A DNA stretch of 64,000 bases from a virus, in the IMG/VR virus record IMGVR_UViG_3300010052_000207, positions 6,790 through 70,789 of that record; one strand, written 5' to 3'. The notes under the pieces are model-generated. The model ran no database searches. It was not told the origin of the DNA and saw only the letters and a program-made list of their open reading frames with translations. The position numbers were made by a program, and so were the translations under genes. Shown piece by piece: positions 4,188 through 38,753 of the stretch (positions are counted from its first letter, which is position 1; every line of letters begins with the position of its first letter).

Positions 4188-6803
4188 CTACTCCGCTGCT
4201 TTCACGTTTAACTCGCTGATTTCGATGTTGTAGGCCGTATCGTAGGACACAAGCTCCACCTTGAAGTCGAAGCCTCGCGCCACGAACTCGCCCGAGTGCA
4301 GCCTGTTCCACGCGGTCCATGTGGGGCTCCCTGCGGGGTCGGTCTGTGTTGTGCGGACAAATACCACGGCATCGGCGGAGGCGGTGTCCGTGCCGTCGAA
4401 TGTGCCTTCCGCGTCGTCAAACAGCCCTGAGCGGCTATCGAACAGGTCCGATGGATTCACCACAGCCGCGAGAAGGTGGGCGGTGAGGCGCACCCGCTTA
4501 ACGCTGCCCAAGTCCATCTTGGTATGGAACAGGTAGGTGCCCGGTGAGGCTGTGCTGGTCAGGGTGAGCTTACTGCTGGTCACCGAGCAATTCGTCTTCG
4601 TTCCGGAGAATGTCGGGTTTTCAGTGACCGTCGAAATCACGGACAGGTTAAAGATGGTGTCCTGCGTCACGATGACGCTCGTAGCCGTCGTGGACTGGAT
4701 GCCGCTCGAATCCTCCGCCTTGACGAGGTAGATGCCCGGCATCAGTGGAAGCACCACTTGCGAGGTGGTCCCCGGCACGGCGTTCCCAATGGACGTACTG
4801 GAAGCCCAACCGCTCGAAGTATCCGGCGAGTAGCGGAACACATACTTGCCGCCGTTGCGCACGTCGAGATCGGGCGAACCGTCCCAGTTCAGGAAGGCCA
4901 ACCCGCCGATGGCGGTCCAGTAGAGGTTCTGCGGCGCGGTTGGCGGGGCAGCGAGGCCCGACACCTGCTTGGTGGTCTGCACATACGCCGAGGACGCGTT
5001 GAGCGTGTTGATGGCTTTGACGCGGAAATTGTAGATACCCGGCGTGATGTCGAGCACTTCGGCGGTGATGGCCGGGGTGCGGGGGAGCGGAATCCAGTCG
5101 GTGTCGTCGGAGAGCTTGTATTCCGCCTGATACAGGTAGATGAAGGCGTCGGGTGACGCCACCCAGCTCATGACCGCCTTAGCCTTCACGCCAGCGCCGT
5201 CGCGGGTGACGTACAATTCTTCGGTCACGGTGAGGGAGAGCGGAGGGGCCACGGTGAAGGGGCTGGGCAGGTTCGTGTCCGGCGCCGCGTCGTAAGTCGA
5301 GGCCTCGCCGCCGTTCCAATCGTAGCTGGCCGACGACTCCTCCTGCAGCGATACGGTGATGGGGCCGATACCGTCGGTCTGGAGGCTCTTGATGCGGAAG
5401 ACCTTGTCTTCCCAACCGAGGGGCGCGTTGGTGAACTGCACGGTGTCCCACACGGCGTAGGACAGCCCCTTGTGGTTGAGCTTCAGCTCGACCTGTATGC
5501 CCTGCCTGCCCTGCTCCAAGATAACCTTGGCGATCCGCTGGGCACGCTCGGGGTGGTTAGTCAGTGTGAGCACCACGTCGCGGGCGATGACCTCCCCGCC
5601 GTCTTGCGTCTCGTAGAGGCTATTGATCACGGGCGCGAAGTCGGTCGGCTGCCAGTTCTTGTTCGGATCGACGTAGGTGCCTTGAACCCGGTTGAAAAGC
5701 TCCTGGCGAGGGGGACGGGTGCGGACCTTGATCTTCTCCACCACCATGTCGAGGTCGATGGTTCCTACGGGGGTGTCGTATGCCCCGGCATGGCCCCTAA
5801 ACTTGCCCTGCACGTAGGTAACGGACCCAGCCATCGCCGCCACGAGGGCGTTCAGGTTATCGATCGGCGCCGCTGCGGTATCGATGACCCCGTTGATCGT
5901 GTAGCGGGTCTGCGAGCCGCCCGTGGAGAGCACGACGGATTCGTCGCACACGTTGGCCGCCGCCTCCCAGAAGTCGTCGTTCACCTCGTCGCTGTCGCAG
6001 TTGAAGCCGTAGTCCGAGGTCAGGTAATCGCGGGCGCATAGGGCGGAATTATCCGACCACACGGTGAGGCCGCTCCGGGGGTCGTAGAGCTTCTTGCCCT
6101 TGACCACGGCGCTGACGTTGGGTGCGCCGTTCGGGTAAACGTCTGGGCTCCACTGGAGGCGGACGTAGATGTAGGAGCGGCCCTGAAGCCGGTGGACGCT
6201 GGTCCAGGTCGGGTATTCCGCGGTGAGGAGCGAATCCACCGTCTGGCTATCGGTGCCGAGATGCTTGGACACGCGGACGTAGGATTTCCCATCCTTGAGG
6301 TATGGGCTGGTCTGGACGAAGCCGCTGCCGTCGAGGCTAACGGGCACGTCGTTCAGGTAGATGGCTCCGATCTCTTCCACCTCATGCGCGGCGATCACGA
6401 TGACCATATGCAGGAACAAATTGTCCGCCGTCACGGTTGTCCCGGTCGAATCAGGGCCGGTGCTCGTGGTGGCTATGAGTGCGAGAGGGCCGGAGACTCG
6501 GGTCTGGCCGTAAACGACCTTGTGGCTCTCCACCGATGAGCGCACCATGACCGTCTGGCCGCGGGCGTCTTGAGCGGTGTTGGCCCCCGGTTTGGGTTTG
6601 CTCGATACCGCTCGGCTCCCCACGGCATTCAGGGCGGTGGCGACGGCGAACCCCACCACGCTGGAGGCGATGGACCCGAAAGTGATGGCCGCGCCGAACG
6701 ACCCGATCCCGGCGCCGAAGGCGGCGAGCGTCAGCGCACCGGCGGTGGCCGATGCGGCATATGCCCCGGCTGCCGCCGCGATGATGGGGATTGCGGGAGG
6801 CAC
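4188..6803 (-). CDS. Tail tip / host-specificity protein (lambda J-like, FN3-like domains)
   Basis: 871 aa; VYGQTRVSG, VKGKKLYDPR and NSALCARDYL motifs typical of tip attachment proteins. Confidence 0.88.
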   Translation of the reverse strand: MPPAIPIIAAAAGAYAASATAGALTLAAFGAGIGSFGAAITFGSIASSVVGFAVATALNAVGSRAVSSKPKPGANTAQDARGQTVMVRSSVESHKVVYGQTRVSGPLALIATTSTGPDSTGTTVTADNLFLHMVIVIAAHEVEEIGAIYLNDVPVSLDGSGFVQTSPYLKDGKSYVRVSKHLGTDSQTVDSLLTAEYPTWTSVHRLQGRSYIYVRLQWSPDVYPNGAPNVSAVVKGKKLYDPRSGLTVWSDNSALCARDYLTSDYGFNCDSDEVNDDFWEAAANVCDESVVLSTGGSQTRYTINGVIDTAAAPIDNLNALVAAMAGSVTYVQGKFRGHAGAYDTPVGTIDLDMVVEKIKVRTRPPRQELFNRVQGTYVDPNKNWQPTDFAPVINSLYETQDGGEVIARDVVLTLTNHPERAQRIAKVILEQGRQGIQVELKLNHKGLSYAVWDTVQFTNAPLGWEDKVFRIKSLQTDGIGPITVSLQEESSASYDWNGGEASTYDAAPDTNLPSPFTVAPPLSLTVTEELYVTRDGAGVKAKAVMSWVASPDAFIYLYQAEYKLSDDTDWIPLPRTPAITAEVLDITPGIYNFRVKAINTLNASSAYVQTTKQVSGLAAPPTAPQNLYWTAIGGLAFLNWDGSPDLDVRNGGKYVFRYSPDTSSGWASSTSIGNAVPGTTSQVVLPLMPGIYLVKAEDSSGIQSTTATSVIVTQDTIFNLSVISTVTENPTFSGTKTNCSVTSSKLTLTSTASPGTYLFHTKMDLGSVKRVRLTAHLLAAVVNPSDLFDSRSGLFDDAEGTFDGTDTASADAVVFVRTTQTDPAGSPTWTAWNRLHSGEFVARGFDFKVELVSYDTAYNIEISELNVKAAE

Positions 6804-7773: not shown

Positions 7774-8372
7774 GAAAGCACCTCAACAGCGGAGAACGTC
7801 TTGGGCTGGTAAACGCCCATCTCGTTGCACTCCCACATGGCTTGCAAGTCGTCCACAAGGGCCATAATGCAGATCGGGCGGTCCACGGTGATGACCGCGT
7901 TATTCAGTGGGCTGTCGCGCAGGGCAGGCTTGAACGAGATCGTCGCATTGCCTCCGCCATTGCTCGTCACGTCCGCCGTGACCATTTTCAGCTCGCCGTT
8001 GACCGAGAAGTAATCCCCCGCCCGGAGTACGGTCTGGCTGGCTAACCAGCCGTCGGTCAAAAGCGAGGAGCCGGTCTGCGAGCCGCCGTTGACGAGGGGG
8101 GCACCCTTGGCCGTACCCCTCGGGATGACGCCATCTGGGTCGTAGCCGTAGAACGTATTCGCCGCGCCTTCAAGGTTCAGGAAGAACGCTTGCCAGGCCG
8201 CCGCCGTGTCACGCTTCATGGCTGGCAGGCTAAAGCTTGCCATCCAACGGGAGCCGGACAGGAGGACCCGCTGCGAGACCTTGGTGAAAGGACTTTCAAA
8301 TTTCTGGGTATTGGTCTCCAGCCCGAACCGGGCGGTAGTGAATCCGGGACGCGTGGGCATGAAGATGGTCAT
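7770..8372 (-). CDS. Distal tail protein
   Basis: Follows tape measure; 200 aa. Confidence 0.75.
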   Translation of the reverse strand: MTIFMPTRPGFTTARFGLETNTQKFESPFTKVSQRVLLSGSRWMASFSLPAMKRDTAAAWQAFFLNLEGAANTFYGYDPDGVIPRGTAKGAPLVNGGSQTGSSLLTDGWLASQTVLRAGDYFSVNGELKMVTADVTSNGGGNATISFKPALRDSPLNNAVITVDRPICIMALVDDLQAMWECNEMGVYQPKTFSAVEVLS

Positions 8373-10072
8373 CAGTTCCTCAACCCGGTAATTTTAGATG
8401 CGGCCCCGCCTCGCTGCATTTCGGCGAATACGGCGGACTTGGTCTGCTCCATGATGCTCGGAACGAGGTTTCGGAGTTGGGCCACGGTCTGCTCGGTCGC
8501 GCCGGGGTTGAGGGTGAAGGTCTGGTTGACCACGACCGTCTGGCCACCGCCCATCATGTTGTTGGGCACGATGGTGCCGGCGCTCTTTGGGACGAAGATT
8601 TCCGGCCCGCGCTCGCCCACGATGGAGGGCATGCCCACAGGCGGACTGCCGCCGTCGGCGAAGAACCCGCCGAAGATTTTACCCACCCCGCCAAGGGCGT
8701 CGTCGAGCAGGCCCTTACTCCCGCCGGTGCCGATGAGGGCGTCGGCCAAGGGACCAGCCACTTTCTTCTGGAACGCCGCCTTGGCGATGGACTCGGCGAA
8801 GTCGAGCATGGCCTGTTTAGCCGACCCGGCCTTGAACGCGATGTCCGTGAGCGTCTGGGAGAGCTTATCGTGGAGGATCTGCTGGAACCGGGCCGCCTCT
8901 TGCATGGATTGGGCGAGGTCGTAATTGGTGCGGGCGAGGTCGCCGTTTTTCGCGATCATGTCGTCGGCATTCTTGATGCCCGCTTTCTGGGCGAGGTCAA
9001 TGGTCTTATAACCCGCCTCCATCGCGGCCTGCTCGCGGGGGGTCTGCTGCAGGATGCTGTTCTGGCGTTCGAGGGAGGTGTTGTATTCGTCCAACGTGAC
9101 CTTGGCTGCGGCGTATTTCTTGGCTTGTTCTTCGGCGGCTTTCTTGCCGAGCAACTCCGTGTTCGACCCCTTGGCTGAGGGGGACGGCTGGTAAACCGGT
9201 CCGAACTGTTCGGTTCCGGTCGCGGCAGCGCCGGGCTTCCGCTTCAGATTGAACTTCGACTGCTCGATGGTGGTCGGGAATTTGGCAGATACGTCGCCTG
9301 TGATAGAGGCGGTAGAATTCAGCGTTTCGGTTGCCTGGGGGATGGTCTCAATCACTTTCAGGATGGCGGCGAATGCCCTCAGGAAGGCGTTTTCAATCTT
9401 GATGCCAGCCTCTGAAAGTGAGTCGCCAAAGGCGTCGATGCGGTCCAGCGTTTCCTTGTCGAGGCCGTTATTCAGCTTCTCCTGCGCCTCCACCGCCTTT
9501 CGCATGTCCCCCTCGTATTGCTTCAGGAGGGGGAGCATGGCGGAAAACCCGCGACCGAAGAGGTTCATGCCCGCTTCGGTCTGCGTGGACTGATCCTTAA
9601 TTTGCCCGAGGGCGCGGGCCACTTCATAGAACTGCTGCTCGGGCGTCAGCTTGCGGAGCTTCTCGACGGACAGGCCGAGCTGGTCGAACGCCTTGACGGC
9701 CTCCTCGTTACCCTTGGCCGCCTCGCCGAGGACGTTGTTCATCTTGTTGATGGCGGCGCTGAACTCGTCGAGGCTGGAGCCGCCGGCAGCAAGGGGGATT
9801 TGTAGGGCGGAGAGCGTGCTCGACGCAAAGCCAATCCGGTCAGACAGATCCACGATATGGCCCGCCGCTTCGATGGCGCTTCTACCGAACTGAACAAAGG
9901 CGACGGCGGAGATTGCGGGAGCGAGGGCGAGGATCTGCGCTTTCAGGTTCCCGAAAGCGCTCGACATGCCGCCGGCGCTTTGCTGAATTACGCCACGGGC
10001 CCTGCCCATCTCGCTTTCGAGCTGGGCCGCGTCCGCCCTGATCCTGACTACCAGTTCACCGACGTCTGTCAT
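8372..10072 (-). CDS. Tape measure protein
   Basis: 566 aa Ala-rich helical protein; VGELVVRIRAD N-terminus; GGFFADGG..IVGERGPEIFVP C-terminus. Confidence 0.93.
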   Translation of the reverse strand: MTDVGELVVRIRADAAQLESEMGRARGVIQQSAGGMSSAFGNLKAQILALAPAISAVAFVQFGRSAIEAAGHIVDLSDRIGFASSTLSALQIPLAAGGSSLDEFSAAINKMNNVLGEAAKGNEEAVKAFDQLGLSVEKLRKLTPEQQFYEVARALGQIKDQSTQTEAGMNLFGRGFSAMLPLLKQYEGDMRKAVEAQEKLNNGLDKETLDRIDAFGDSLSEAGIKIENAFLRAFAAILKVIETIPQATETLNSTASITGDVSAKFPTTIEQSKFNLKRKPGAAATGTEQFGPVYQPSPSAKGSNTELLGKKAAEEQAKKYAAAKVTLDEYNTSLERQNSILQQTPREQAAMEAGYKTIDLAQKAGIKNADDMIAKNGDLARTNYDLAQSMQEAARFQQILHDKLSQTLTDIAFKAGSAKQAMLDFAESIAKAAFQKKVAGPLADALIGTGGSKGLLDDALGGVGKIFGGFFADGGSPPVGMPSIVGERGPEIFVPKSAGTIVPNNMMGGGQTVVVNQTFTLNPGATEQTVAQLRNLVPSIMEQTKSAVFAEMQRGGAASKITGLRN

Positions 10073-11963: not shown

Positions 11964-12413
11964 CTACTTGACCGACTTGGCTGCCGCGGTGCGGACGGCC
12001 TGGGCGAGGCGCTCGGCGATCCATGCCTTGCTCTTTTCGAGGGCGGGGAACATAAAGGGGCGGGCCGCCATCTTGGTAGTGCCGAACTCGAGGGCTTTGG
12101 CGTACTCGGTTCCAACGATGACCGCGACGGACAGGCTCGTATCCTCGGGCTCGACTCGGAAGCCGCGATTTACCAATGCCCCGGTATCGGAGGCCGGTGC
12201 CTCACCTGGCGCCGAGGCTTGGTGGGTGACGGAGCGCCGCTTGTAGATGCGGCCCGTCTTCCCGCCTGCGGTGATGCTCCGCTTGGCCTCGCCCTCGACC
12301 TTCTTCGCGCTCGCGTAGAGGCCCTTCTTCAGCTCCGCCTCGACTGCCTTCTGCACTGCCAGGGTCGCGTTCTGAATCTTGTCCAGCCCCTCAACCTTCA
12401 CCGAGAAGTCCAT
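11964..12413 (-). CDS. HK97 gp10-like tail completion protein
   Basis: SAPGEAPASDTG and LEFGTTKMAARPFMFPA motifs. Confidence 0.9.
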   Translation of the reverse strand: MDFSVKVEGLDKIQNATLAVQKAVEAELKKGLYASAKKVEGEAKRSITAGGKTGRIYKRRSVTHQASAPGEAPASDTGALVNRGFRVEPEDTSLSVAVIVGTEYAKALEFGTTKMAARPFMFPALEKSKAWIAERLAQAVRTAAAKSVK

Positions 12414-12415: not shown

Positions 12416-12628
12416 TCAGAGCCAGTCCCTTGCGAGTTGTTCAATCCATTCGTGCTGCCGGCGGCAGATGTTGGGGTCGATCCGGTGGATCGCGTAGTGG
12501 AGTGCAGCCACAGCAACCGCTACTGCGAAAATCAGAGCCAATCCCACCGTGAGCCGCTTGAGGTAACAAGCCAGCCCGCAGGTTAGCGAAACGGCGGATA
12601 CCAGAGCCGAGATGATGCAACAGATCAC
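12416..12628 (-). CDS. Small Cys-rich membrane protein
   Basis: Two hydrophobic segments; start overlaps the G8 gene stop. Confidence 0.45.
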   Translation of the reverse strand: MICCIISALVSAVSLTCGLACYLKRLTVGLALIFAVAVAVAALHYAIHRIDPNICRRQHEWIEQLARDWL

Positions 12629-15600
12629 GCGTTAACCGTAATTCGTATCGACTGAGGCGTCCCGTTGCCGTAGGGGTTAGCAGCGGCCACCTGCACCTCG
12701 TACTCGTTATCGTCGTCCGCGTCGGCAGGAGAGCCGGAGCTCATCGTGCCATTGCCTAGCCAGCGCAGTGTCGAGACACCGACCGACTTGTTGATTTCGA
12801 ACTGCGCCTGATCGGCACCCCCGATGATGGACCAGCTTGGGTGGATCTCGGCGGCCTTCAGGACAAGGGCCAAGGTCGCCCCGCTGGTCACGCTGGCCGT
12901 GTCGGCGCTGGTGATGGTGGGGGCCGTGGTGTCGATGACGACCGGCGGGGGTGCCACGCCGATAGATTCCGCACGGAGCGGTAGCTCTGGCTTCAAGTTC
13001 GGATCGACGACGTTCCCGGCGAGGAAGCTCGGGTCCATCGACGAGTGCAACAAGAGGTCGACATGGAACTGGAAATATTCGCCCGTCAGTCGGTCGTGCT
13101 CAGTGAACCAGCAGCGGGTCTTCCAGGTGCCGTTGTCGTTCCAGCAACCGTTCCTCTTGACCAGCACCTCGGGGGTATTCCCATTCTGGCGGGCATAGCG
13201 GTTGTTGCTATGCGAGCTCATCGGTCCGAAGCTCTCGGAAGTGAGAACGTCCGGGTAGAGACGGACACCCACCGAATCGACGATGGCCCCCTTGATAGAG
13301 ATGATGCCAGAGGTGCTGAGCGTGATGTCGCTGGTGGGGTCCAGCCAAAAGTACGGCTTGGACGTGCCGGGCGACGGCTCGACGCCGCCTAGACCACGCG
13401 GAGCGGCCGGGGTATTGACCGGCAGGTCGGTAGCGCTGTTCAGTGACTTCCATTCTCGGAGTGTGCCGATCCAGCGGGTGGGTGTACTTGCTGGGTCGGT
13501 GATCCACGGTCCCATGAGCCCGTAGAACTCCTGGTCCTGCGGGAAAGCCTTGCCTGGGTTGGCCGCAATCCACGCTGTCAGGTCGAAATCACCGGTGAAG
13601 TGGGTAAAAGGCGTGGGGACCGTCGCAGGATCGCACACCACGTCGATCCAGTAGCCATCGTAGTTGAACCCAAGCCCTTCCTGTTGGAAGCCGACGGAAT
13701 AGTTCTCCAGGTAACCGTTCACGAACATCTGCTGCCATGACACGCTGCCGAGCCTTGCCGCCGCGCTGGCTCCTGTACCGGTCCACATGAAGTCGTAGAA
13801 GCTGTAGAAGAACGTGTAATTGATCAGGTGAAACGGCGTCTCGGTGGCTACGCAGTCAAAGTTACGCGCGATCATCGGCGTCGTGTCGGTTCGGTCGGTG
13901 AACTGACGGTGTGCGACCCCGAAGCCGAACCTGCATCCGTAGCAGGCGTTGTTGTAAAAATCGATGATCTGCGCCTGCTCGATTCCGTAAGTGTCCTCGT
14001 CCATGCTGAACTCGGGATCTGAGCTGCCCGAACCGCGCCCGGAAACCACCGGATCAGGATTCCGCATCGAATACATGTCGGGCACGCGAGTGGACTGCTT
14101 GACGTTCTGCTGCATGAACATCCAGCCGAAGTTGCAGTCGATGGCGATGTTGCCCTGCTGGAAGACTTGGCGGGCTTGGCTCTCGTAGCCCACACCGGCG
14201 TGGCCATTGTGGTTCTCGAACAATTCCGCCCGGCTACCCCAGGAAACCGGATAGCCATCGCCGCGGCACCCGATGACGGTGTTATTCATCCACTGGCCGG
14301 TCTCGTTGCCCAGTTCGGAAACAATACCTGCACCGCGCACATTGGAGACGACGCAGTTTTCAACGGCTGCGCGGCCGGCATGGTGCGTGATGCCCCATCC
14401 GTCAATTGGGTAAGCATCCCCCCACACCTTGCAACGTTTGACCGGGAACTGCTTGCGGCCGAAGTGAGCACCCATCCAGTGCAAGTGGATCGGGTAACGT
14501 CCACGCACGTTGTTGGGGTTGGTGATGATCGTCCCGCCGTTGGTTGCCCGGACGGGCGTGCCGTCGGGTAGAGCGAGAGAGGGGTCCGTATTGGTGCGGC
14601 CAAGGTCTTTGAACTCGACATCCCAGAATCCGCCCCCGTCATGGTGCATGGCCATCGTGTGGCCGCGCTTCTGGGAGCTGGACGGGTCTTCGCTGCGTAT
14701 GCGGATGGAGCCGGTCAGGCATGCGATCACGGGTTTTCTTACACGGACCTGACCGTGAGGTAGCGTCCGCTTGGTCAGGACGTGGTCGTGTTCGAGCGGC
14801 TCCGCCCAGGTAATGGTGCTCCCCACGACGGCGGTAATGGTGCGACGCTCGGAGTGGCTCTGCATGAACCCGAAGGTTTGCGTGCGAACGGCGGTCGTGC
14901 CCTGGTACGGCCCCCAGAACTGCGTCGGACCGGAGTATTGCGGGTCCGTCATGCTGACGCCGGGGTAATCGGTCGAGCCGAACTGAACCACGTCGCCCAC
15001 ACGCCAGTTCGCGCCGCGTACACCGCGAATCTTGGCGGAGGTGCTCCCGGCGGGGATATCCTTGTCGCTCAGGAGGCGGTCGGCTTTCGGTGCGCCGACG
15101 AGGAGCCTGTAGCCTTTCCAGATAAGGCCCAGGCGAGGAGTCGAGCCAGGGGCCTCCGTCTGGTGCAGGACGATTTCCGCACGGGGCTTGCCGGGCGTGG
15201 CACTGTCCGCGACCGGGGCGTATCCTGCGCCCATGAGGAAGGTGCCGAGGCAAAGCAAAGTGTCCACCCAGAGGCGGGTGTCCTTGCTCACATCCCAGCG
15301 AAAAGTGCCGGGGCCGCCAACGTGGATATCCTTGACCTTGGCGTCTGATTCGACGTCGTAAATCACGTCGCGGCTACCGATTTCGACAACGGCCCCCGCC
15401 CCGGGGACCGTTCCGGTGTCCCAGATCGCGGGGTTCGACCAGCTTCCATCGGCGATCGCGGTATGCGAGTACGGCCCGAGGTCGTTGATCGTGCCGCAGC
15501 AGCCGACGGCGTCCGTGGCGGTGAAGTCGTAGTAGGATTGGGGCACTTCCGCCGTGCGGCCGCCGAACTTGGTCGTAATCTCGGGAACTCGGCCCGCGTC

Positions 15601-15651
15601 GGAGCGATCGATGTGCCGAGGTTGGGGCTTGGAACGCGGTGTGAGGCGCAT
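12625..15651 (-). CDS. G8-domain / right-handed beta-helix protein with C-terminal cadherin-like domain; putative polysaccharide depolymerase
   Basis: HTAIADGSWSNPAIW (G8), RGHTMAMH..VEFKDLGR..GRYPIHLH (CEMIP/TMEM2/PKHD1-type repeats), GGADQAQFEI..DADDDNEYEVQV (cadherin-like). Confidence 0.8.
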   Translation of the reverse strand: MRLTPRSKPQPRHIDRSDAGRVPEITTKFGGRTAEVPQSYYDFTATDAVGCCGTINDLGPYSHTAIADGSWSNPAIWDTGTVPGAGAVVEIGSRDVIYDVESDAKVKDIHVGGPGTFRWDVSKDTRLWVDTLLCLGTFLMGAGYAPVADSATPGKPRAEIVLHQTEAPGSTPRLGLIWKGYRLLVGAPKADRLLSDKDIPAGSTSAKIRGVRGANWRVGDVVQFGSTDYPGVSMTDPQYSGPTQFWGPYQGTTAVRTQTFGFMQSHSERRTITAVVGSTITWAEPLEHDHVLTKRTLPHGQVRVRKPVIACLTGSIRIRSEDPSSSQKRGHTMAMHHDGGGFWDVEFKDLGRTNTDPSLALPDGTPVRATNGGTIITNPNNVRGRYPIHLHWMGAHFGRKQFPVKRCKVWGDAYPIDGWGITHHAGRAAVENCVVSNVRGAGIVSELGNETGQWMNNTVIGCRGDGYPVSWGSRAELFENHNGHAGVGYESQARQVFQQGNIAIDCNFGWMFMQQNVKQSTRVPDMYSMRNPDPVVSGRGSGSSDPEFSMDEDTYGIEQAQIIDFYNNACYGCRFGFGVAHRQFTDRTDTTPMIARNFDCVATETPFHLINYTFFYSFYDFMWTGTGASAAARLGSVSWQQMFVNGYLENYSVGFQQEGLGFNYDGYWIDVVCDPATVPTPFTHFTGDFDLTAWIAANPGKAFPQDQEFYGLMGPWITDPASTPTRWIGTLREWKSLNSATDLPVNTPAAPRGLGGVEPSPGTSKPYFWLDPTSDITLSTSGIISIKGAIVDSVGVRLYPDVLTSESFGPMSSHSNNRYARQNGNTPEVLVKRNGCWNDNGTWKTRCWFTEHDRLTGEYFQFHVDLLLHSSMDPSFLAGNVVDPNLKPELPLRAESIGVAPPPVVIDTTAPTITSADTASVTSGATLALVLKAAEIHPSWSIIGGADQAQFEINKSVGVSTLRWLGNGTMSSGSPADADDDNEYEVQVAAANPYGNGTPQSIRITVNA

Positions 15652-16385
15652 CAGTTCTGGGCGATACCGAGGCCGATTTTGACCGCGTTCGTGGCCGCAT
15701 AGGTCTCGGACCCGCTGATAACGGGCACGACGAAGAGGGTGGTGTTCGCGGCGGCGATCTTGAACGGCAGCCCTTGCTGGGCGGCCTGCACTAAGGCGGG
15801 GGTGCCGCAGTCGATGACGTCCTCACACGGGATGACCCCTGCCAACTTGTCCATGTCGGCGGGGTCGATGGCCAGGGCGGCGTGGTCGGTGAACGTGCTG
15901 CTGGCCGGGTCGGTGTGGAACACGTAGAGTTGGAACAGGGCGGATTGGCCTGCTGCCTTGCTGACATAGGCGTGCCGTACCTCCCCGCTCCCGCCGTTAG
16001 AGCGGGCGGCACCGGCAAAAGAGAGCTTCCCGCCCACTACCATGCCGGGTGTGTACGCGCCCACGGTCACGGTGGGGGTGAGGGCCAGATTGACAGCGCC
16101 TGCGGCAGTGTTCGCGGAGATGGCTGCAAGTGCGGCGTTGCCGGTGTCCTGCTTGGTTGCGGTCGCCCCACCATCCGGGATCTTGGCGACCGATTCTTGG
16201 ATGGCGGCGAGGACGGTGTTCGCGGCGGCCTGGTTCCCGGAGGTTGCCGGATCGATGACCGCCCCATTCGTGTCAACGATCGGGTGTACGGGGTTATTGG
16301 TGCCAGCCGCCACGTCGTTCTGCGTCTTGAGCTTTGCCGTGCCTACGGCTACCGGGACGGTTATACTGCTGGTAGTGGCTGCCAT
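15651..16385 (-). CDS. Fibre/adaptor protein, short paralog of 17992-19218
   Basis: Shares ATSGNQ..AN, TPTVT.GAYT.GMV.GGKLS and FHTDP..STFTD motifs; second ATG chosen from RBS spacing. Confidence 0.8.
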   Translation of the reverse strand: MAATTSSITVPVAVGTAKLKTQNDVAAGTNNPVHPIVDTNGAVIDPATSGNQAAANTVLAAIQESVAKIPDGGATATKQDTGNAALAAISANTAAGAVNLALTPTVTVGAYTPGMVVGGKLSFAGAARSNGGSGEVRHAYVSKAAGQSALFQLYVFHTDPASSTFTDHAALAIDPADMDKLAGVIPCEDVIDCGTPALVQAAQQGLPFKIAAANTTLFVVPVISGSETYAATNAVKIGLGIAQN

Positions 16386-16414
16386 GCGTGAGCACATCCT
16401 TTCAATATCAAAGC

Positions 16415-16442
16415 TAAGACCGCCTCTAATCGAGCGGTCTTA
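16415..16442. terminator. Intergenic hairpin TAAGACCGC/GCGGTCTTA
   Basis: 9-bp perfect stem at the boundary between the two cassettes. Confidence 0.4.
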
Positions 16443-16532
16443 CTATCCCCACCCCGAAAAAATCGGATGCGGGTACTACAATCAATCTTTAACCGCACTG
16501 CACAGAATCGCAGCGATGCATGCTGAACGCAG

Positions 16533-17990
16533 CTATTGCAGCAAGCTATTAATGGCTGCGGCTGCAATAGGGGACTCTTCAGCATAACCTTTATTGCTTA
16601 GGTGAACACCATCAGCTGACCAGTAATTACCGACGGTAACGGTGGTTAGATTTGCGTTGGTCTCGTAGTCCAATAGTTTGTACCCATAGGTTCCTGCGTT
16701 GGACCTTACTAACGTATTGTACGATTGTCGCTCGGCTTCCCGAGCTACCGAGTCGGTCGGCCATGTGAGCGGTATCATGACCTGCTGAATGACACTAAAT
16801 CCCGCAGCTTGCATGGCTTGGATGAACGGGAGGACAAAGCTAGACCAGGCAGTCGCACCAAAGCCCGACACAGACCCTGATGCTACGTTGATCAGGTCGT
16901 TGGCAGCGTCAGCACCGAAGCAAATGTTTTTTTGAAGCGAGGCGTTATATTGAGCGGCGTATTTGGCCCGATCAGCATAGATTTGACTTGCTGTTTGTCC
17001 GAATTTGCCCTGATTGGAGATGAAAACCCGGCGATTAAGGAGGGGCTCGGTATAATAGGTAATGTTCTTTCCTTGAGTTGCGCCAGTCCCTTGGACCCCA
17101 GAGTGCCCTGGCCAAATAATCTGCCCTGTTGCAGAAGTTAACACATCAAAAGCCGAATACAGAAATGTGTGGAGGCTTGCAATGTTCCCAGCAGAAAGTT
17201 CACTCGGATAAATGATTTTCGCGAAATGAAGACCGTTTATGAGGTAGCCGCCCGTAGTGACGTATCCGGTTTTGCCCCCCACCCATGTCCCGGCGGTGTT
17301 GGCACTCAGGCTTTGAACAGCATTATTGTCCTGATATACTTTGATTGCAGACGCACCAGAAGTTACGGTGCTTACCTGTGTCTGTGAACGTGACCGGCCA
17401 TTCGCTACTTTCAGAAATGCAGAAGAGGTCAGAACCTGATATTTGTTTTCACCGTTCTGTGCGGGCAGAAGCGATAGGGATCCCGCCGTCGTATAGGCTG
17501 CCCCGACGAGGCCGGTGCATGCTGCGTTACTGGAGGCATAAGCCACGACCTCGACCACAGAAGTAGCCTGCCCGTTGCCGGTGATTGCGGCAGGCATATC
17601 CAGCCACGTTGAAGCCTTGATCGCCTGATCGAAAAGCACACCATAGTGACCGCGAATTACATTGTCCAAAGAGAAGAACGGCTTGTTAGCCGCCGTGGCC
17701 TGAGCTTCATCATTCCCCGTTCCGAGCTGGTCGTATCGCTTTACCAGATAGCAGTAGCTTGCAGTGCCGAGCCAAGATGACACGGTGCCGAGGTTGGGGC
17801 GACCATTGGGCAAAGAATATATGTCCTTGATCGCGCCATCTGAGACACGCTCCAATCGAAACAACGGCCCCCTATAACTAAACACAAGTCGATTCATGCC
17901 GTAAACGGCCAGAGGTGAAGTTGCGACTACAGGCAAATCCCCGATCGTCGCTGGGGCGCCAGGAGAAAGAAAAATTAAATCTCTACGCAT
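16533..17990 (-). CDS. Virion-associated SGNH/GDSL hydrolase with N-terminal beta-sandwich domain
   Basis: Block I IIWPGHS (GDS variant), GADAANDL, DGVH catalytic motif; visibly AT-richer than neighbours. Confidence 0.8.
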   Translation of the reverse strand: MRRDLIFLSPGAPATIGDLPVVATSPLAVYGMNRLVFSYRGPLFRLERVSDGAIKDIYSLPNGRPNLGTVSSWLGTASYCYLVKRYDQLGTGNDEAQATAANKPFFSLDNVIRGHYGVLFDQAIKASTWLDMPAAITGNGQATSVVEVVAYASSNAACTGLVGAAYTTAGSLSLLPAQNGENKYQVLTSSAFLKVANGRSRSQTQVSTVTSGASAIKVYQDNNAVQSLSANTAGTWVGGKTGYVTTGGYLINGLHFAKIIYPSELSAGNIASLHTFLYSAFDVLTSATGQIIWPGHSGVQGTGATQGKNITYYTEPLLNRRVFISNQGKFGQTASQIYADRAKYAAQYNASLQKNICFGADAANDLINVASGSVSGFGATAWSSFVLPFIQAMQAAGFSVIQQVMIPLTWPTDSVAREAERQSYNTLVRSNAGTYGYKLLDYETNANLTTVTVGNYWSADGVHLSNKGYAEESPIAAAAINSLLQ

Positions 17991-17991
17991 T

Positions 17992-19218
17992 TTAATCCTG
18001 TATCACGGTAGCGTTAATTACGAGAGCTGAGGTCGAGGCCAGAGTTTCACCCCCCCGAATCACCGCCACCGCAAATAGCGTCGTTCCCGTCGCCAGCTTG
18101 AACGGCAGGGCTACGTTGGCCGCCTGCAGCGTCTTGGGCGTGCCGTTGTCCACCAAGTCGCTGCAATGCGCAATGCCGATGAGGTACGGAAGATCGGCCA
18201 CGTTCAGCGCCAGCGCGGAGTTATCGGTGAATGTGCTGTTCGTCGGGTCGGTATGGAAGAAGTGCACGTCATAAGGCGCCGTCAGTGCGGTCTTCTTGCT
18301 CACGCTCACCGATTGAATGATGCCGCTGCCGCCCGATGCCCGCACCGCACTGGTCAGGCTTAGCTTGCCACCCGCCACCATGCCAGTGGTATAAGCGCCC
18401 GCCGTCACCGTGGGAGTAATGGTCAGGTTCACCGAACCGGCCCCGGTGTTGGCAATGATCGTATCGAGCTTCGTGTTGCCCGTGCTCTGGTTCGCGGCGG
18501 TGGCCGCTCCGGTGGGCAGCGGCAGGGCCGCCTGATCGCTGGCGATAACCACGGGTAGCGAGGCGGAGCTGACAGCAGAACCTTGTGCGGGGATTCGGCC
18601 CGTGTTCGTGCCGATCGTCGTGAGGCTCTGAAGGCCCCGCTTCAGAAGAGCGATCAGGCTGAAAGTCCCGGTGTCACTCGACGCGGCGGTGTCGGCTTTC
18701 GCCCCGAGATTCGTATCGACGTTCGCGATGGAGGTGTTGCCAGTGCCCTGCGCGGCAGCAGTCGCTGCCCCGGTGGGAAGCGGAAGCGTGCCGTCCGAGG
18801 CGAGCACGACGGGCGTGGAGGCCGCTGCGAGAGCAATGCCCAGCGCCGGGGTGCGGCTCAGGAGTCGCTTGAACAGGGCGATGAGGCTGAAGGTGCCCGT
18901 GTCGCTACTGGCCGCCGTGTCGGCCTTAGCGCCGATGGCGGTGTCGATGTTCGCGGTGCTCGTGGCGGTGTTGGCGGCCGAGGTGTTGCCGGTCGTCTGG
19001 GCGGATGCTGTGGCGAGACCGGCCGTGTTCGTCGCGATGGTCGCGAGCGCGGAATTCGCCGTGGTCTGGTTGCCCGAGGTAGCCGGGTTGATGATGGCCC
19101 CGCTGCTGTCAAGAACGGGGCGAGCGAAGGCGCTGTTCGTACCGTCGTTGTAGGCGATCATCGGCTTGGTGGCGCCGGTTGCGTCCTTAACGTTGAGGGG
19201 GGTCAAGTCGAAAGTCAT
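17992..19218 (-). CDS. Fibre/adaptor protein, long paralog with internal duplication
   Basis: Ala/Thr-rich stalk followed by the C-terminal domain shared with 15651-16385. Confidence 0.82.
   Translation of the reverse strand: MTFDLTPLNVKDATGATKPMIAYNDGTNSAFARPVLDSSGAIINPATSGNQTTANSALATIATNTAGLATASAQTTGNTSAANTATSTANIDTAIGAKADTAASSDTGTFSLIALFKRLLSRTPALGIALAAASTPVVLASDGTLPLPTGAATAAAQGTGNTSIANVDTNLGAKADTAASSDTGTFSLIALLKRGLQSLTTIGTNTGRIPAQGSAVSSASLPVVIASDQAALPLPTGAATAANQSTGNTKLDTIIANTGAGSVNLTITPTVTAGAYTTGMVAGGKLSLTSAVRASGGSGIIQSVSVSKKTALTAPYDVHFFHTDPTNSTFTDNSALALNVADLPYLIGIAHCSDLVDNGTPKTLQAANVALPFKLATGTTLFAVAVIRGGETLASTSALVINATVIQD
18490..18990 (-). repeat. Two ~70-80 aa internal repeats (GAKADTAASSDTGTFSLIAL..PVV.ASD..LPLPTGAATAA)
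   Basis: Both copies readable in the translation; boundaries approximate. Confidence 0.85.
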
Positions 19219-19233
19219 GCGTTATCTCCTGGT

Positions 19234-19653
19234 TTAAGCTGCGTATGCTGAGTTCTGGGCGTCAGAGAAGTCGAACTGCCCGCCTGCGCCTGCGGGGGGC
19301 TGGGCGGCCAGCATGTCATCGACGGTGGCCAGGTAGATTTGGCCGCCCCGCACGATGGGTATGAGGTCGGTCGTTAGAACGGGAGGCGTCAGGAGCGGGG
19401 CGTCGGCGATGATCCCGCCAAGTGCGCCGCCATCCCCGATTGTTCCCGCTTCGTCAGCAAAAATGGCCAGATGGCCGGGCACCGTTGCCCCGTTCACCGA
19501 GGCGAGGTTGCCCTTGGTGGCGTCGGAAGCGGCCTTCGCGGCGGCGGAGCCAACGACGACGCGGAAATTCTCTTCGGCACGCTCTGCGGGAATCGCGTCG
19601 CCTGTCTGAACAAGCCCGCCATCCGGCAGGTCGCCAATGTATGTGTCTGCCAT
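19234..19653 (-). CDS. Neck/collar fibre-type small structural protein
   Basis: MADTYIGDLP N-terminus, AAAKAASD..SVNGATVPGHLAIFAD segment, FDFSDAQNS C-terminus. Confidence 0.65.
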   Translation of the reverse strand: MADTYIGDLPDGGLVQTGDAIPAERAEENFRVVVGSAAAKAASDATKGNLASVNGATVPGHLAIFADEAGTIGDGGALGGIIADAPLLTPPVLTTDLIPIVRGGQIYLATVDDMLAAQPPAGAGGQFDFSDAQNSAYAA

Positions 19654-19656: not shown

Positions 19657-20082
19657 CTATGCCCTCAAAAGGATTTTGCCGCCGTCTCGCAGCAGGATGT
19701 AGCCGCCGGAGCGGAGCGCGATCGCGCCGATGTCCGGCACGAATTCGACCGAGACCGTTTCGATCGCCTTGATGCTCAGGAAGCGGCTCTGCTCGCTCTG
19801 GTTGATGGCCTCTTTCACCTCGAACACCCGCGTGCCGTATTTCAGGCGGCAGGCGGAGGTGACGTCGCGGCGGAACCGCATGATGATCTCGTGGCTGGCG
19901 GGCACGGCGGTCTGCATCGCCTGGAACCGCTCGTAGGCCCTCTTCGGCTCGATGCTCGCCCAGACGGTGTCGCCATCGACCCAGCTTTCGGTGAACCCGC
20001 CCTGGCCATCGCTGACGCGTCTCACGGTCTGGATCGTCACCCGCCTCTTGAGCGTGGTGGCGAGATTCTCACACTTAGCCAC
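19657..20082 (-). CDS. Head closure protein (SPP1 gp16-like) with C-terminal extension
   Basis: LKRRVTIQ..DGQGG..VWASIEP..HEIIMRFR pattern. Confidence 0.9.
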   Translation of the reverse strand: MAKCENLATTLKRRVTIQTVRRVSDGQGGFTESWVDGDTVWASIEPKRAYERFQAMQTAVPASHEIIMRFRRDVTSACRLKYGTRVFEVKEAINQSEQSRFLSIKAIETVSVEFVPDIGAIALRSGGYILLRDGGKILLRA

Positions 20083-20707
20083 GCGAGTCCCCCATGACCC
20101 GATAGGGCTGGAGGAGCATCCGGCAGGCGTCGCTCATCTCGCAGCCGCACTGGCCGTCGTACATCTGGGCCGCGTGCATGATGATCGCGGTGCGGATCGG
20201 CCTGGGCACGTCGGTGGCGGCGGGGCCGTGCCCGGCGGTGTAGATGATCTCGGTGGCGTTCGTCGAGCGGAGGCCGCTGGGCCAGGTCTCGCCCGAGTTC
20301 AGGACGATCCGGTCGCCGAATACGCTGTATCTTGTGCTCTCGTAGAGCGTTGGGTCGTTCAGGGTGTCGTAGGTGGTGACGGACGTGACGCCGATCACCG
20401 GCCCCTGGGGTAATTCCAGCTTCGAGGGGAGGTAGCCGTCGAAGTAGTTAACCGGGAGCTGGTAGTAGCCTGGATTCCACTCGGAGCGCCCGCAGCCTGC
20501 GTTATCCATCGAGAGCTTGAGCGTCCGGGTGATGAAGCTCCGCTTGGTGTAACTCTCCGCAGCGGTGCGGGCGGTCTCGATCCATCCCGCTATGTGGGCG
20601 TCGTCGTCCGAGCCGTCGATTCGGGCGTAGGCCTTCACCTCCGCGACCGTGACCGGCTCGATGGCAGGCCCGGTAACGGTGGTGACGAGGGAGGGGGGCT
20701 GGCTCAT
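20075..20707 (-). CDS. Head-tail connector (gp6-like)
   Basis: EPVTVAEVKAYARIDG..ARTAAESYT..VPRPIRTAI pattern. Confidence 0.9.
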   Translation of the reverse strand: MSQPPSLVTTVTGPAIEPVTVAEVKAYARIDGSDDDAHIAGWIETARTAAESYTKRSFITRTLKLSMDNAGCGRSEWNPGYYQLPVNYFDGYLPSKLELPQGPVIGVTSVTTYDTLNDPTLYESTRYSVFGDRIVLNSGETWPSGLRSTNATEIIYTAGHGPAATDVPRPIRTAIIMHAAQMYDGQCGCEMSDACRMLLQPYRVMGDSRG

Positions 20708-22707: not shown

Positions 22708-24039
22708 CTAAGTAGAAATCTTCATAATCTTAACTGCCTCGTAGTTGACCACAGCGCCGCCAACCCGCTTGGTCGTGTAGAACTTCACGAACGGCTTGTC
22801 GGTGAACGGATCACGGAGGATGCGGATGCCGGTGCGGTCGACGATCTGGTACGCCGCCTTGAAGTCGCCGTAGGCGGCCGCGAGGGCATTGGTGGCGACC
22901 GTCGGCATGTCCGTCGCGAAATACAGCGGAGCGCCGAGGACGCTACGCTGCAGGCCGATACGCATGTCGTACTGCATATTGAAGATCGGGGTGCCGTTAC
23001 CGTCCTTTAGGAGCAGCAGGTTGCCGAAGCCGAGACGGTTGACCAGCCAGGACGCGTTGCCCTGGTACTCTTCCTTGAGAGCGGACTGGAGGTTGACCAG
23101 GCCGTCGTAGCCGAAGGCCGAGGCCGAGCCGCTGACGATCTGCTCGATCTGCTGCGAACCGATGCTGGTGCCCGCCGTGTAGGTCAGGATACCGCGAGGT
23201 TGGAGCACGCCGTCGCCGGACATGAATGCGGTGTTCTCCATGCGGGCGAACTTCTGGGCTACCTTCGCCGCCAGCCACGCCTCGATGTCCACCGCCGCGT
23301 CGTCGATCAGCTTCTGCGTTGCCTTGGGCATCGCGTAGATCTCGTTGACCGGGATGACCAGCTTGGACAGACGGGGGGTGTTGGTTTCAGGACGGGCCTG
23401 AGTTTCACCCACCCAACCGGCACTGGCCTCATCGTTGTCGAGCATGTACTCGAGCGAGTCGGAGCTGATCGTCTGGACGCTGGCGAGCTGGCGCATCGGC
23501 GAGGTTTCGCGGACGAGCGTGGTGATGGTACCGCCCAGGGTCGGGATGACCAGATAGCCGCCGTCGGGGTCGCTGTTGACCGACATGGTCTTCAGCGCAA
23601 GGGTGCGGGCCTCATCGTCGGCCTTTTCCGTGCGGCGGAGGTAGTCGGTGTAGTCCTCGCCTTTCACGGCACCTTTGCGGGCGAACTCGTTGAACAGCTC
23701 GGTGCTCTTCTTGTTCACTTCCTCGGCGCTATTTTTGACCTCGGACGTGGTCACGGAGATCGGCCGGGAGAGGGCCGTTTCCAGAAGGGCTTGCTTTTCT
23801 TCGAGGGCTTTGAACTGGGCGTCACGAGCCTTGGATTCGTCCTCGGCCGCCTTTACGACGCCTTCGGCTTTCTGAGCCAGATCGATGCCCTTGGCAATGT
23901 CCTCGGCCATCTTGTTGAACTTAGCCTGATCGAAACCCTCGACATTCTTCATCTTGCCTTTGATGTCGGTGAAATCGGTTTTCAGTGCTTCGAACGCGGT
24001 CAGTGCGCCCTCAATGGACTTCTGAATTTCTACTTCCAT
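22708..24039 (-). CDS. Major capsid protein, HK97 fold
   Basis: DPDGGYLV, SPMRQLA, FARMENTAFMSGDG..PRGIL, YTTKRVGG motifs. Confidence 0.97.
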   Translation of the reverse strand: MEVEIQKSIEGALTAFEALKTDFTDIKGKMKNVEGFDQAKFNKMAEDIAKGIDLAQKAEGVVKAAEDESKARDAQFKALEEKQALLETALSRPISVTTSEVKNSAEEVNKKSTELFNEFARKGAVKGEDYTDYLRRTEKADDEARTLALKTMSVNSDPDGGYLVIPTLGGTITTLVRETSPMRQLASVQTISSDSLEYMLDNDEASAGWVGETQARPETNTPRLSKLVIPVNEIYAMPKATQKLIDDAAVDIEAWLAAKVAQKFARMENTAFMSGDGVLQPRGILTYTAGTSIGSQQIEQIVSGSASAFGYDGLVNLQSALKEEYQGNASWLVNRLGFGNLLLLKDGNGTPIFNMQYDMRIGLQRSVLGAPLYFATDMPTVATNALAAAYGDFKAAYQIVDRTGIRILRDPFTDKPFVKFYTTKRVGGAVVNYEAVKIMKIST

Positions 24040-37534: not shown

Positions 37535-38252
37535 TTACGCATCAGCCAACAGCTCCCTGGCTCGGTTCAGCCGTTCGCGGGCGGCTCGGTATTTCTCGGA
37601 CCTGCTGGGCGTGAAGACGGGGAGGAGCCGGACGGCGTCGTATTCCTGCTGGGCCAGTTCGAACTCCTGCCAGAGTGCGGCATCCCGGTTGTGGGTGAAC
37701 TCGAAGGCCGAGGAAATGAGCATCAAACGCCCCGCTGCTCCTGAGAGGCTGTGTTTGCCTCGATGGCCCGCTTGGTCTCCTCGATGATGAACTTCAGCTT
37801 GGCGGGCCTGCCGTCGAGGAAATAACCCAGCTCCCCTCTGTCCTCAAGCCGCCCGTGAAGCCAGGCGAACGCCTGCACGACCGGGTTGACCGTGGCCTTG
37901 GGTGCCGGGTCGACGAAAACCGGCGGCAATTTCGGCGGGGCAGGCGGCAACGGGCGGGACTTCTTGATGACGACGATCGGCTTGGTCATTCGGGGTCCTT
38001 CGGGTCGTAACTTTTGAGCCGGTCGAGGATTCGGGTGGAGAGTGACTCCACCCGGTACGGCTTTTTTTCGGCTAACCTCATCTCCCTCCGCAGGGTAACG
38101 CCGAGGGCGAGCGCGCCGTCGGAGATGGTCAGGGCTTGAGGGTCGCGGCCGGGGAACATCTCCCCATAAACGGCCCGAACGTCGAACAGGAGCTCTTCAG
38201 CCTCGGTCATAGCGGACGCGCATGCAAAAACACTCCGATAAGGCAGAGCCAC
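37535..38252 (-). other. Three overlapping small hypothetical genes (37535-37726, 37723-37989, 37986-38252)
   Basis: Chained stop/start overlaps. Confidence 0.6.
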
Positions 38253-38325
38253 CAGCTAACGTCGGAGAGCGGGTAGCCGACATGGTGCGCGAGCAGCATC
38301 AGGCCGCAGGTCAGGCCGAGGGCGT

Positions 38326-38499
38326 TCATACCGGCTCCACCACTCGGGCCCACATGGCACCGGCTTTAATGATCGCTACGGCATCTACTGCGTTCCGCTT
38401 GCGGGTGTACGTCTCGCTATGGGCCAGCACCTTGCCGTTACCCGCGACGATGCGGAAGTACCATTCGTTCTTGGCGGCCTTTAGAACTTCAAATTTCAT
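38326..38499 (-). CDS. YegP/DUF1508-family protein, 57 aa (not in ORF track)
   Basis: MKFEVLKAAKNEWYFRIVAGNGKVLAHSETYTRKRNAVDAV matches the family pattern; RBS AGGA. Confidence 0.85.
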   Translation of the reverse strand: MKFEVLKAAKNEWYFRIVAGNGKVLAHSETYTRKRNAVDAVAIIKAGAMWARVVEPV

Positions 38500-38696
38500 T
38501 TCGGTTTCCTCCCTTTATTGCTTCGTTTTGGCGTCCAGCTATTTACGTCATTCAAGCGGTAGACCCGCCTCCCGAGGCAGGCGACAGGCTTCGGTGCATC
38601 GGCTTTAGCGAGATGGTAAGCGAGCAACGAGAGGCCCATGCCCTTCATCGCCGCAATTTCCTTCTGGGTAACATACTGCTCTGTATCAAGTTTCAT
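38496..38696 (-). CDS. Small HTH DNA-binding protein
   Basis: YVTQKEIAAM..APKPV..RVYRLNDVNSW. Confidence 0.7.
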   Translation of the reverse strand: MKLDTEQYVTQKEIAAMKGMGLSLLAYHLAKADAPKPVACLGRRVYRLNDVNSWTPKRSNKGRKPK

Positions 38697-38724
38697 GGTT
38701 TGTTGAAGTAACTTAAATTATCTG

Positions 38725-38753
38725 TTGCGCGAAGCATTATCTTCAGCTACCTT
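38725..38753 (+). promoter_or_regulatory. Promoter TTGCGC-N17-TACCTT
   Basis: Divergent AT-rich intergenic region. Confidence 0.55.

Follow-up and report, generated by a model that had tools for sequence, protein, structure and literature searches.

The 64,000 nucleotides of viral DNA considered here (the window; positions 6,790 to 70,789 of the IMG/VR virus record IMGVR_UViG_3300010052_000207) belong to a siphovirus prophage of a planctomycete, the nearest relatives of which come from Gemmata sp. G18 and from metagenomes, and they carry, on the minus strand at 12416-19653, a 7.2-kb block of six genes flanked by the genes for head closure and for an HK97-gp10-like protein. With moderate confidence, we consider this block to be an accessory host-adhesion island that occupies the neck gene slot of this prophage lineage and whose fibres and enzymes are carried near the head-tail junction. 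By analogy, it is best read as a multi-gene, duplicated counterpart of the neck passage structure (NPS) of lactococcal phages or of branched receptor-binding complexes. Its novelty lies in fibres and enzymes that are encoded by separate genes and form two ancient cassettes, in the phylum of the host and, above all, in a large unnamed family of jelly-roll domains. To our knowledge, almost nothing has been established on how phages of the Planctomycetota recognise their hosts, which are wrapped in unusual polysaccharides, and the block supplies likely accessory adhesion genes as well as two candidate polysaccharide-active enzymes for these phages.

The genes of the block and the two genes that border the slot are as follows.

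19657..20082, minus strand: head-closure (Hc1) gene, upstream border of the slot (PF05521, E 5e-24; phrog_25, E 7e-21)
19234..19653, minus strand: P0003, small protein of 139 amino acids (aa) (recognised by its homologues; no Pfam or PHROG match)
17992..19218, minus strand: P0001, long fibre-like protein of 408 aa (paralogy with P0002; hidden Markov model, HMM, of the C-terminal domain)
16533..17990, minus strand: P0004, 485 aa, ConA-like domain and putative SGNH/GDSL esterase (Pfam, motif blocks)
16398..16532, minus strand: AT-rich spacer of 135 nt with several hairpins (hairpin folding, GC profile)
15651..16397, minus strand: P0002, short fibre-like protein, 248 aa from the first ATG (paralogy, AlphaFold2 model)
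12625..15651, minus strand: P0005, 1008 aa, predicted G8 domain, CEMIP-type beta-helix and C-terminal cadherin/Ig-like domain (Pfam, orthologues)
12416..12628, minus strand: P0006, hydrophobic protein of 70 aa (translation, tblastn)
11964..12413, minus strand: HK97-gp10-like tail-completion (Neck1) gene, downstream border of the slot (PF04883; phrog_5, E 3e-19)

An earlier note, drawn from the sequence alone, had described open reading frames (ORFs) making up two cassettes, each of a fibre and a polysaccharide-active protein, within the genes for head-tail joining and separate from the tail fibre. All of these elements were found where it had placed them, with the same lengths and in the same order, and the block lies upstream of the genes for the tail terminator and the major tail protein (MTP), with the J-like central fibre encoded apart at 4188-6803. 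Apart from one gap of 135 nt, neighbouring genes of the block are spaced by -4 to +15 nt; P0002 and P0005 share 1 nt between stop and start, and P0006 overlaps the stop of P0005. We take cassette A to consist of P0003, the long fibre P0001 and the ConA-like/SGNH esterase P0004, and cassette B of the short fibre P0002, the G8/CEMIP-type beta-helix protein P0005 and the small membrane protein P0006.

The two fibre-like proteins are true paralogues. Their last 187 aa are 50% identical (E 7e-57) and a stretch of 74 aa near the N-terminus is 46% identical (E 2e-11), which bears out the proposal that they share an N-terminal domain and a C-terminal domain of about 150 aa. In P0001, an N-terminal module (N-module, residues ~1-60) is followed by an Ala/Thr/Gly-rich stalk (~86-260) and by a jelly-roll domain at 258-408 (roughly 17995-18447; E 3e-62 with the C-domain HMM). 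The stalk is duplicated (62% identity over 99 aa, E 4e-30) and P0002 contains no internal duplication, both as the earlier note had it. P0002 has the same N-module, then two predicted helices and the jelly-roll domain at 100-248 (roughly 15654-16100); its start is probably at the fifth codon, at 16385, which gives 244 aa, because the homologues and the public gene call begin there. In the AlphaFold2 model of P0002, the C-terminal domain has a predicted local distance difference test (pLDDT) score above 90 and is modelled as a beta-sandwich of jelly-roll fold, the helices 53-71 and 80-96 score 55-70, and residues 1-35 are disordered. Fibre tips and lectins also include domains of the jelly-roll class.

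Each fibre would accordingly be built of three parts: the N-module of ~60 aa, taken as the end that attaches to the virion, a helical stalk of cassette-specific length and a C-terminal jelly-roll knob of 150 aa. The N-module has been kept by the two paralogues and by every relative, and it also heads a protein of 229 aa without a knob in the related locus L003. This conservation, together with the occurrence of the module away from the knob, is typical of proteins that are held to the virion by the N-terminus and exchange their distal parts, the lactococcal NPS being one example.

P0003 contains two internal copies of a D-x-I-P...R-G-G-x-x-Y-x-x-T motif and has 12 homologues of ~140 aa (58-68% identity). 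The long fibre is always preceded by such a homologue, which stands directly between Hc1 and the long-fibre gene in L002, L079, L080, L081, L082 and L005; P0003 is absent from L003 and L010, which have no long fibre either. It gave no Pfam match even at E 10, no PHROG match and no profile match at E 10 to the Gp80 chain-fibre family PF23140, and with 11 homologues the AlphaFold2 model reached a pLDDT of 41, so that the label "collar-type" given to it previously could not be verified.

The Hc1-Neck1 slot is kept in seven related loci, each of which holds one or two cassettes. The products encoded in the slot are, by length in aa and in gene order:

L002, prophage of Gemmata sp. G18: 137, 362, 406, 245, 902
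L079: 143, 353, 468, 244, 1236
L081: 141, 360, 844
L005: 137-like, 372
L003 and L010: 142 (Gp80), 752, 573, 254, 1183, 229
L009: 139, 190, 372

In all five genomes that have the short fibre (window, L002, L003, L010 and L079), the next gene encodes a P0005 orthologue, with 51-63% identity over 890-1000 residues. Since this orthologue is constant, the beta-helix enzyme is not swapped. An apparent fusion ORF of 1992 aa in L010 was rejected as an artefact, produced because the longest ORF had been chosen in GC-rich sequence; L010 in fact encodes a fibre of 238 aa and a P0005 orthologue of ~1185 aa.

The other enzyme position is replaceable. Orthologues of P0001 (353-372 aa) are encoded in L079, L081, L005 and L002, and the gene that follows the long-type fibre encodes a ConA-like and SGNH protein in the window, a protein of the same Pfam architecture that is not BLAST-alignable to it in L079, a GDSL protein with fn3 and a LamG-like end in L081, a compact GDSL protein in L009 and a LamG protein in L002. 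This gene varies and yet mostly encodes an SGNH esterase, so function is mostly retained while the gene is replaced. The claim that the enzymes are swappable is thus right for the gene after the long fibre, where SGNH or LamG genes that cannot be aligned take each other's place, and wrong for the G8/beta-helix gene, which is fixed. As far as can be judged from the sequences, one enzyme position evolves by replacement and the other does not.

In L003 and L010, P0003 and the long fibre give way to a gene of the PF23140 Gp80 family (142 aa, E 7e-16), a protein of 752 aa and a beta-helix protein of 573 aa (replaced cassette A at 2862-5571 in L003 and 4245-6971 in L010). Over its C-terminal 430 residues, the 752-aa protein has 34% identity to the 468-aa esterase of L079, and its first 310 residues form a repeat-rich Ala/Gly/Ser/Thr region, in which two Y-R-[VI]-P-G...N-E-T motifs and ~11 G-[TS]-S repeats can be read ahead of the SGNH domain. 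Fused to this region and preceded by a Gp80 gene, the esterase of L003 and L010 is evidently, to judge from its gene, part of a fibre. The strongest indirect argument for the display of esterases on fibres is that related ones are encoded after a knob fibre in some loci and joined to a fibre scaffold of another type in others. The 752-aa protein may be a "rope" on which Gp80 dimers are strung and which ends in an esterase; this would be a chain-like fibre in a siphovirus.

The passengers also share parts among themselves. The last ~250 residues of the SGNH and fn3 passenger of L081 (11521-14055) are 41% identical to those of the G8/beta-helix passenger of L079 (13699-17409), and both proteins end like LamG/ConA-type lectin domains; by this comparison, C-terminal lectin modules seem to be shuffled between otherwise unrelated passengers.

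In the tree of knob domains, the long-type clade is separate from the short-type sequences. A recent duplication of the two fibres within the genome, which would make the C-domains of the window sisters, was rejected by the approximately unbiased test (p-AU 3e-5), and the two cassettes are, by their knob sequences, old paralogous units. The knob at the short position in L079 groups with the long type, weakly (p-AU 0.068 against monophyly of the short type), so that gene conversion of this knob is only suggested. The lineage provides a natural experiment on how cassettes are exchanged within one fixed slot, where the number of cassettes changes, esterases are replaced and a related esterase is set on a different scaffold.

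P0004 is matched in Pfam by ArabFuran-catal (27.6 bits, above the cutoff) and, below the cutoff of 32.9, by Lipase_GDSL_2 (PF13472, 27.1 bits), and PF13472 is also precomputed on the called P0004 product. Blocks I, II, III and V of the SGNH family can be read as GHS, GKFGQ, GADAAND and DGVH and are conserved in P0175, a homologue with 54% identity, where block V is DSVH. With all four signature blocks readable, P0004 can be assigned to the SGNH/GDSL family as a putative esterase. P0175 is its nearest homologue, the identity of 54% running from residue 25 on and the first 24 residues being different; it is encoded in another phage, after a tail-fibre-like gene and a gene for 112 aa, and no knob domain was found at that locus. 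A cellular protein with ConA-like and SGNH domains, P0177 (25% identity to P0004; locus L084, a contig of JGI 3300048854, gene at 8001-9545), lies in an exopolysaccharide (EPS) locus with genes for glycosyltransferases, a flippase, Acyl_transf_3, Poly_export and the exosortase EpsH/EpsI. The presence of this distant homologue in a bacterial EPS/exosortase cluster points to a polysaccharide as substrate.

For P0005, the G8 match is at 20.4 bits, under the cutoff of 22.9, and that of the orthologue in L002 (Gemmata, 63% identity) passes with 24.1 bits, with Beta_helix and CEMIP_beta-hel below threshold. The nearest Atlas clusters all bear G8 and CEMIP_beta-hel, the closest being annotated as G8+Big_9+CEMIP_beta-hel (score 0.91, 206 shared features). 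P0005 is therefore predicted to be a G8 domain followed by a right-handed beta-helix, the support coming mostly from the orthologue and the Atlas neighbours. P0004 and P0005 are unrelated to each other, in agreement with the earlier description of the two passengers, and no classical signal peptide was seen on reading either sequence (no predictor was run).

P0006 has two membrane spans that are apparent by eye and a homologue at the same place in L002, in an uncalled gene at 13446-13652 (tblastn, 55% identity over 69 aa). A membrane protein is odd amid an operon of connector and fibre genes, and P0006 might be holin-like, an exclusion factor or an assembly factor.

The P0004 gene stands out by its composition. 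A sharply bounded island at 16400-18000 has a GC content of 0.47-0.56, against 0.61-0.70 in the flanks, and its extent is exactly that of the gene and its hairpin-rich 3' spacer. This spacer, the gap at 16398-16532, is the sole sizeable intergenic gap of the block; it contains a terminator-like hairpin of 10 bp at 16415-16442 and folds better than shuffled sequence (z -3.4, 0/200 shuffles). It is not conserved, the equivalent gaps being 12 nt in L002 and 48 nt in L079. The low-GC island indicates a recent horizontal replacement of the P0004 gene alone, and since the spacer is missing in the relatives, the hairpin, which does exist and had been taken to mark the boundary between cassettes, marks the import of this gene and not a general cassette boundary.

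Taking these elements together, we propose that the fibres and the translationally coupled enzymes would be made late, together with the connector proteins, and that, on the particle near the head-tail junction, they would bind the host surface or extracellular polysaccharide. This would be processed locally, the esterase removing O-acyl groups and the beta-helix protein cleaving the chain or binding it tightly, all before the tail tip engages. Incorporation into the virion and a position at the neck are what we infer from the gene position and from the analogy with the lactococcal NPS; the fibres may be anchored by their N-termini, the enzymes may have these activities and substrates, and they may either ride on the fibres or attach alone. 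The pairing itself is observed, as esterase or lectin genes follow long-type knobs in the window, L079, L081 and L009.

The earlier note had gone further and assigned to the fibres the part of adaptors, in which the C-terminal jelly-roll trimer is a socket for the N-terminus of the protein encoded downstream, so that the cassettes would be interchangeable display arms. Such arrangements are known from other phages, where BppU holds BppL and, in G7C, gp66 holds the gp63.1 esterase. We regard this as a less likely possibility for the window. It agrees with the conserved order from fibre to enzyme gene, with stops and starts that overlap or abut, and with the association of long-type knobs with esterases (4/4) and of short-type knobs with G8/beta-helix proteins (4/4; window, L002, L003 and L010), and also with the very divergent knob (branch length 3.2) of the one fibre that precedes a LamG protein, the 362-aa fibre of L002. 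Pairs of a stand-alone knob gene and a gene for a ConA/LamG-like protein occur outside the neck slot as well (gp47/gp48 of Caulobacter phage Seuss, L026, L038 and L042). However, the tracking of knob and passenger is confounded by the vertical inheritance of the cassettes, and the short-position fibre of L079 precedes a beta-helix protein although its knob groups, at the borderline noted above, with the long type. The first 20 residues of the downstream proteins were basic in a first survey (+1.91 against -0.16, p 1.5e-7, post hoc), but this signal was not reproduced with 14 new loci, of which 6 genes were usable (p 0.62), and stands unconfirmed. No shared N-terminal docking motif is detectable among the passengers or the esterases behind long-type knobs, the closest esterase homologue, P0175, comes from a phage locus without a knob domain, and most members of the knob family are followed by connector or small genes. 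A complex prediction with three copies of P0002 75-248 and P0005 1-470 gave scores of 0.32, 0.00 and 0.00, which we count neither for nor against binding.

The knob is the most widespread element of the block. It has no Pfam or PHROG family, and neither have its 100 nearest Atlas clusters. A word-based search recovered 10 proteins only, and an exhaustive profile search recovered 8,861 cluster representatives at E <=1e-3, 5,125 at <=1e-10 and 312 at <=1e-30, almost wholly from uncultured phages. Predicted structures in BFVD and the AlphaFold DB confirm the knob fold for the C-terminal part of many proteins that have not been characterised. In 50,697 deposited phage records, searched by tblastn with three different knob members, the domain was found only in Seuss and in one uncultured Manatee Spring phage genome (five accessions); scans for further loci of the family gave 2 in genomes and 0 in metagenomes. 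Seuss (L001), the only cultured phage with a knob, encodes it as a stand-alone protein of 167 aa, gp47, directly after the lysis cassette, followed by a protein of 393 aa with a LamG-like C-terminal end (gp47-gp49, at 37719-39817 of the record), and would be a tractable model to locate the domain in the virion. Once the place of the knob in the virion is assigned, thousands of hypothetical proteins would gain an annotation.

We surveyed the gene context of the family in 50 non-redundant IMG/VR loci. Among the +1 and +2 genes (n=81), 5 encode Laminin_G_3, 1 GDSL and 8 head-completion or connector families, with LRR, PKD and Big also present. The expectation that homologues of the adaptor are consistently followed by variable enzyme genes thus holds in the lineage of this prophage and fails in the family at large, where most of these genes are not for enzymes.

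Several observations weigh against an adhesion island anchored at the neck by its N-modules. The N-module is modelled unreliably (AlphaFold2 pLDDT 39-50), and the part that is constant throughout the family is the C-terminal knob and not the N-terminus: in the top 154 representatives, the knob ends at most 10 residues from the C-terminus in 152, and the N-terminal extension, commonly 50-200 aa, is shorter than 20 aa in 15 and longer than 400 aa in 5. Stand-alone knob forms (150-160 aa) are typically encoded 1-2 genes after the major capsid gene, major capsid protein (MCP) families of Pfam occupying position -1 or -2 in 12/47 loci; they also precede head-tail adaptor and Neck1 genes, as checked gene by gene in L050, L062 and L041. 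A knob constant across the family, with knob-only members in head modules, would fit a capsid-binding role no less well. Structural matches of the knob in VIA-align include the capsid cement proteins 8h89_J (Z 7.0, 124 aa aligned), 7eel_H (Z 6.9) and 7dou_4 (Z 6.5), and all Z values (<=7.6) are weak, within the range that the tool itself calls common arrangement or noise. On the side of the enzymes, the Pfam matches of P0004 and P0005 are marginal on the window's own sequences, and the terminator-like hairpin and foreign composition of the esterase gene would also fit a moron without a structural role.

The first group of these points could be accounted for if the jelly roll were the anchor, sitting as a trimer on the capsid with stalk and N-module pointing outwards, so that the fibres would be head fibres of two lengths. 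Cement proteins of this type, such as those of GP4, Pam1 and KHP30/40, are trimeric jelly rolls (PMC13730344), and a domain at the extreme C-terminus behind extensions of 0 to more than 400 aa agrees with this arrangement. We nevertheless consider it unlikely, as fibre tips and carbohydrate-binding modules (CBM) score like the cement proteins (C-domain of the Bdellovibrio fibre Bd2133, Z 7.1; CBM27, Z 6.8), the genes of this lineage follow the head-closure gene instead of lying beside the capsid gene, and the N-module, which also occurs without a knob, shows the conservation of an attachment module. Moreover, the knob goes together with different MCP families, Phage_capsid in the window and Phage_capsid_4 or Mu gpT elsewhere. 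Foldseek against the PDB gave generic matches only, with E >1e-3 (satellite tobacco necrosis virus coat protein, Pgp3 and 4-1BBL, i.e. viral jelly rolls and TNF-like folds), and sequence searches of the PDB with P0001, P0004 and P0005 singly and with the C-domain profile (to E 10) found no match.

The points on the esterase gene raise the question of whether the block is made of lysogenic-conversion or lysis-stage genes of the late operon, which would remodel or digest the exopolysaccharide of the host and so block superinfection or free the progeny. The cellular relative of the esterase in an EPS cluster, the frequency of G8/CEMIP beta-helix proteins among the cellular proteins of Planctomycetota and the small membrane protein within the block would suit such a role, which we nonetheless hold to be quite improbable: the six genes are co-oriented and tightly coupled to those of the connector, seven related phages keep the block whole and at exactly this position, and the fibre-like paralogues have no evident role outside the particle. 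In a relative, moreover, the esterase module forms one protein with a fibre-like region, beside a Gp80 fibre gene, and the lack of a classical signal peptide by eye on P0004 and P0005 does not favour it either.

The accessory adhesion island at the neck remains our preferred reading. A more general view, which we find doubtful, is that the knob is a "socket" domain of environmental tailed phages that either inserts into the particle or takes up the protein encoded next to it downstream. If so, phages would attach lectins, esterases and depolymerases to their head or neck by means of two-gene cassettes, and the planctomycete prophages would have the most elaborate, duplicated form of this system.

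The late operon around the block is complete, of siphovirus type and on the minus strand of the window. It runs from the small and large terminase, portal, MuF-like protein, S78 protease and HK97-type capsid protein (22708-24039) through the head-tail adaptor (20075-20707) and head closure to the six genes, and then from the gp10-like gene through the tail terminator, major tail protein, tape measure and Dit to the J-like central fibre. In related environmental phages, packaging genes are split by inteins or homing endonucleases, with Intein_splicing in the MuF-like protein of L081 (3790-5526) and LAGLIDADG within the terminase of L006 (2070-4517).

Among known systems, the jelly-roll cement proteins (GP4 gp1, 8h89_J; Pam1 gp6, 7eel_H; KHP40, 7dou_4) resemble the knob in size (140-155 aa) and fold, and the stand-alone relatives of the knob are likewise encoded beside capsid genes. 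By contrast, the structural scores are weak (Z 6.5-7.0), the profile has no PDB match at E 10, and in the window the knob is joined to a long preceding stalk, its gene following that for head closure. The chain-like fibres of the podophages GP4, VP1 and A1002 consist of Gp80 (PF23140) dimers strung on a "rope" protein (PMC13730344). L003 and L010 recall them with a PF23140 gene in the place of cassette A, followed by the repeat-rich SGNH protein, whose role as a rope is a lead only, whereas the window has no PF23140 member.

In the N4-like phage G7C, gp66 and gp63.1 form a branched adaptor/tailspike complex with an SGNH deacetylase. Complexes of this kind share with the proposed organisation an SGNH-type O-deacetylase used for host recognition and enzyme modules that are exchanged horizontally. 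The branched complexes of Possum (PMC9569702) and of the CBA120 tailspikes (TSP; PMC8825819) likewise combine a virion-bound adaptor or fibre with polysaccharide-modifying enzymes, as we propose for the window. They are located at the tail, are encoded among tail genes and have docking domains that have been solved, whereas the block of the window lies among connector genes, its docking is putative and its adaptor domain is unrelated.

The closest parallel is the NPS of lactococcal 936 and P335 phages, in which an optional gene upstream of mtp encodes a neck collar with coiled-coil whiskers, the ends of which are CBM, beta-helix or carbohydrate-esterase-like modules, and of which "double" forms exist (PMC6669499, PMC4759559). 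Like the NPS genes, those of the block are optional, vary in cassette number and lie in the head-tail/neck region upstream of the major tail gene; both systems have a conserved N-terminal part, which serves for attachment in the NPS and may do so here, variable distal modules of lectin/CBM, beta-helix or carbohydrate-esterase-like type, and single as well as double versions. The NPS whisker is a trimeric coiled coil, and the NPS is, as the block would be, accessory to the receptor-binding protein at the tail tip. Its N-terminus is a BppU-like beta-sandwich, whereas P0001, P0002 and P0003 gave no Pfam or PHROG match to such a domain, the models having a pLDDT of 39-50 for the N-module and 41 for P0003. 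The neck location of the NPS was obtained by immuno-electron microscopy, and that of the block is deduced from its genes. Finally, the NPS is a single polypeptide of 500-900 aa, whereas here fibre and enzymes are encoded by separate ORFs and as many as six genes are involved, the fibre ends distally in a domain of another, unannotated jelly-roll family and the host is a planctomycete.

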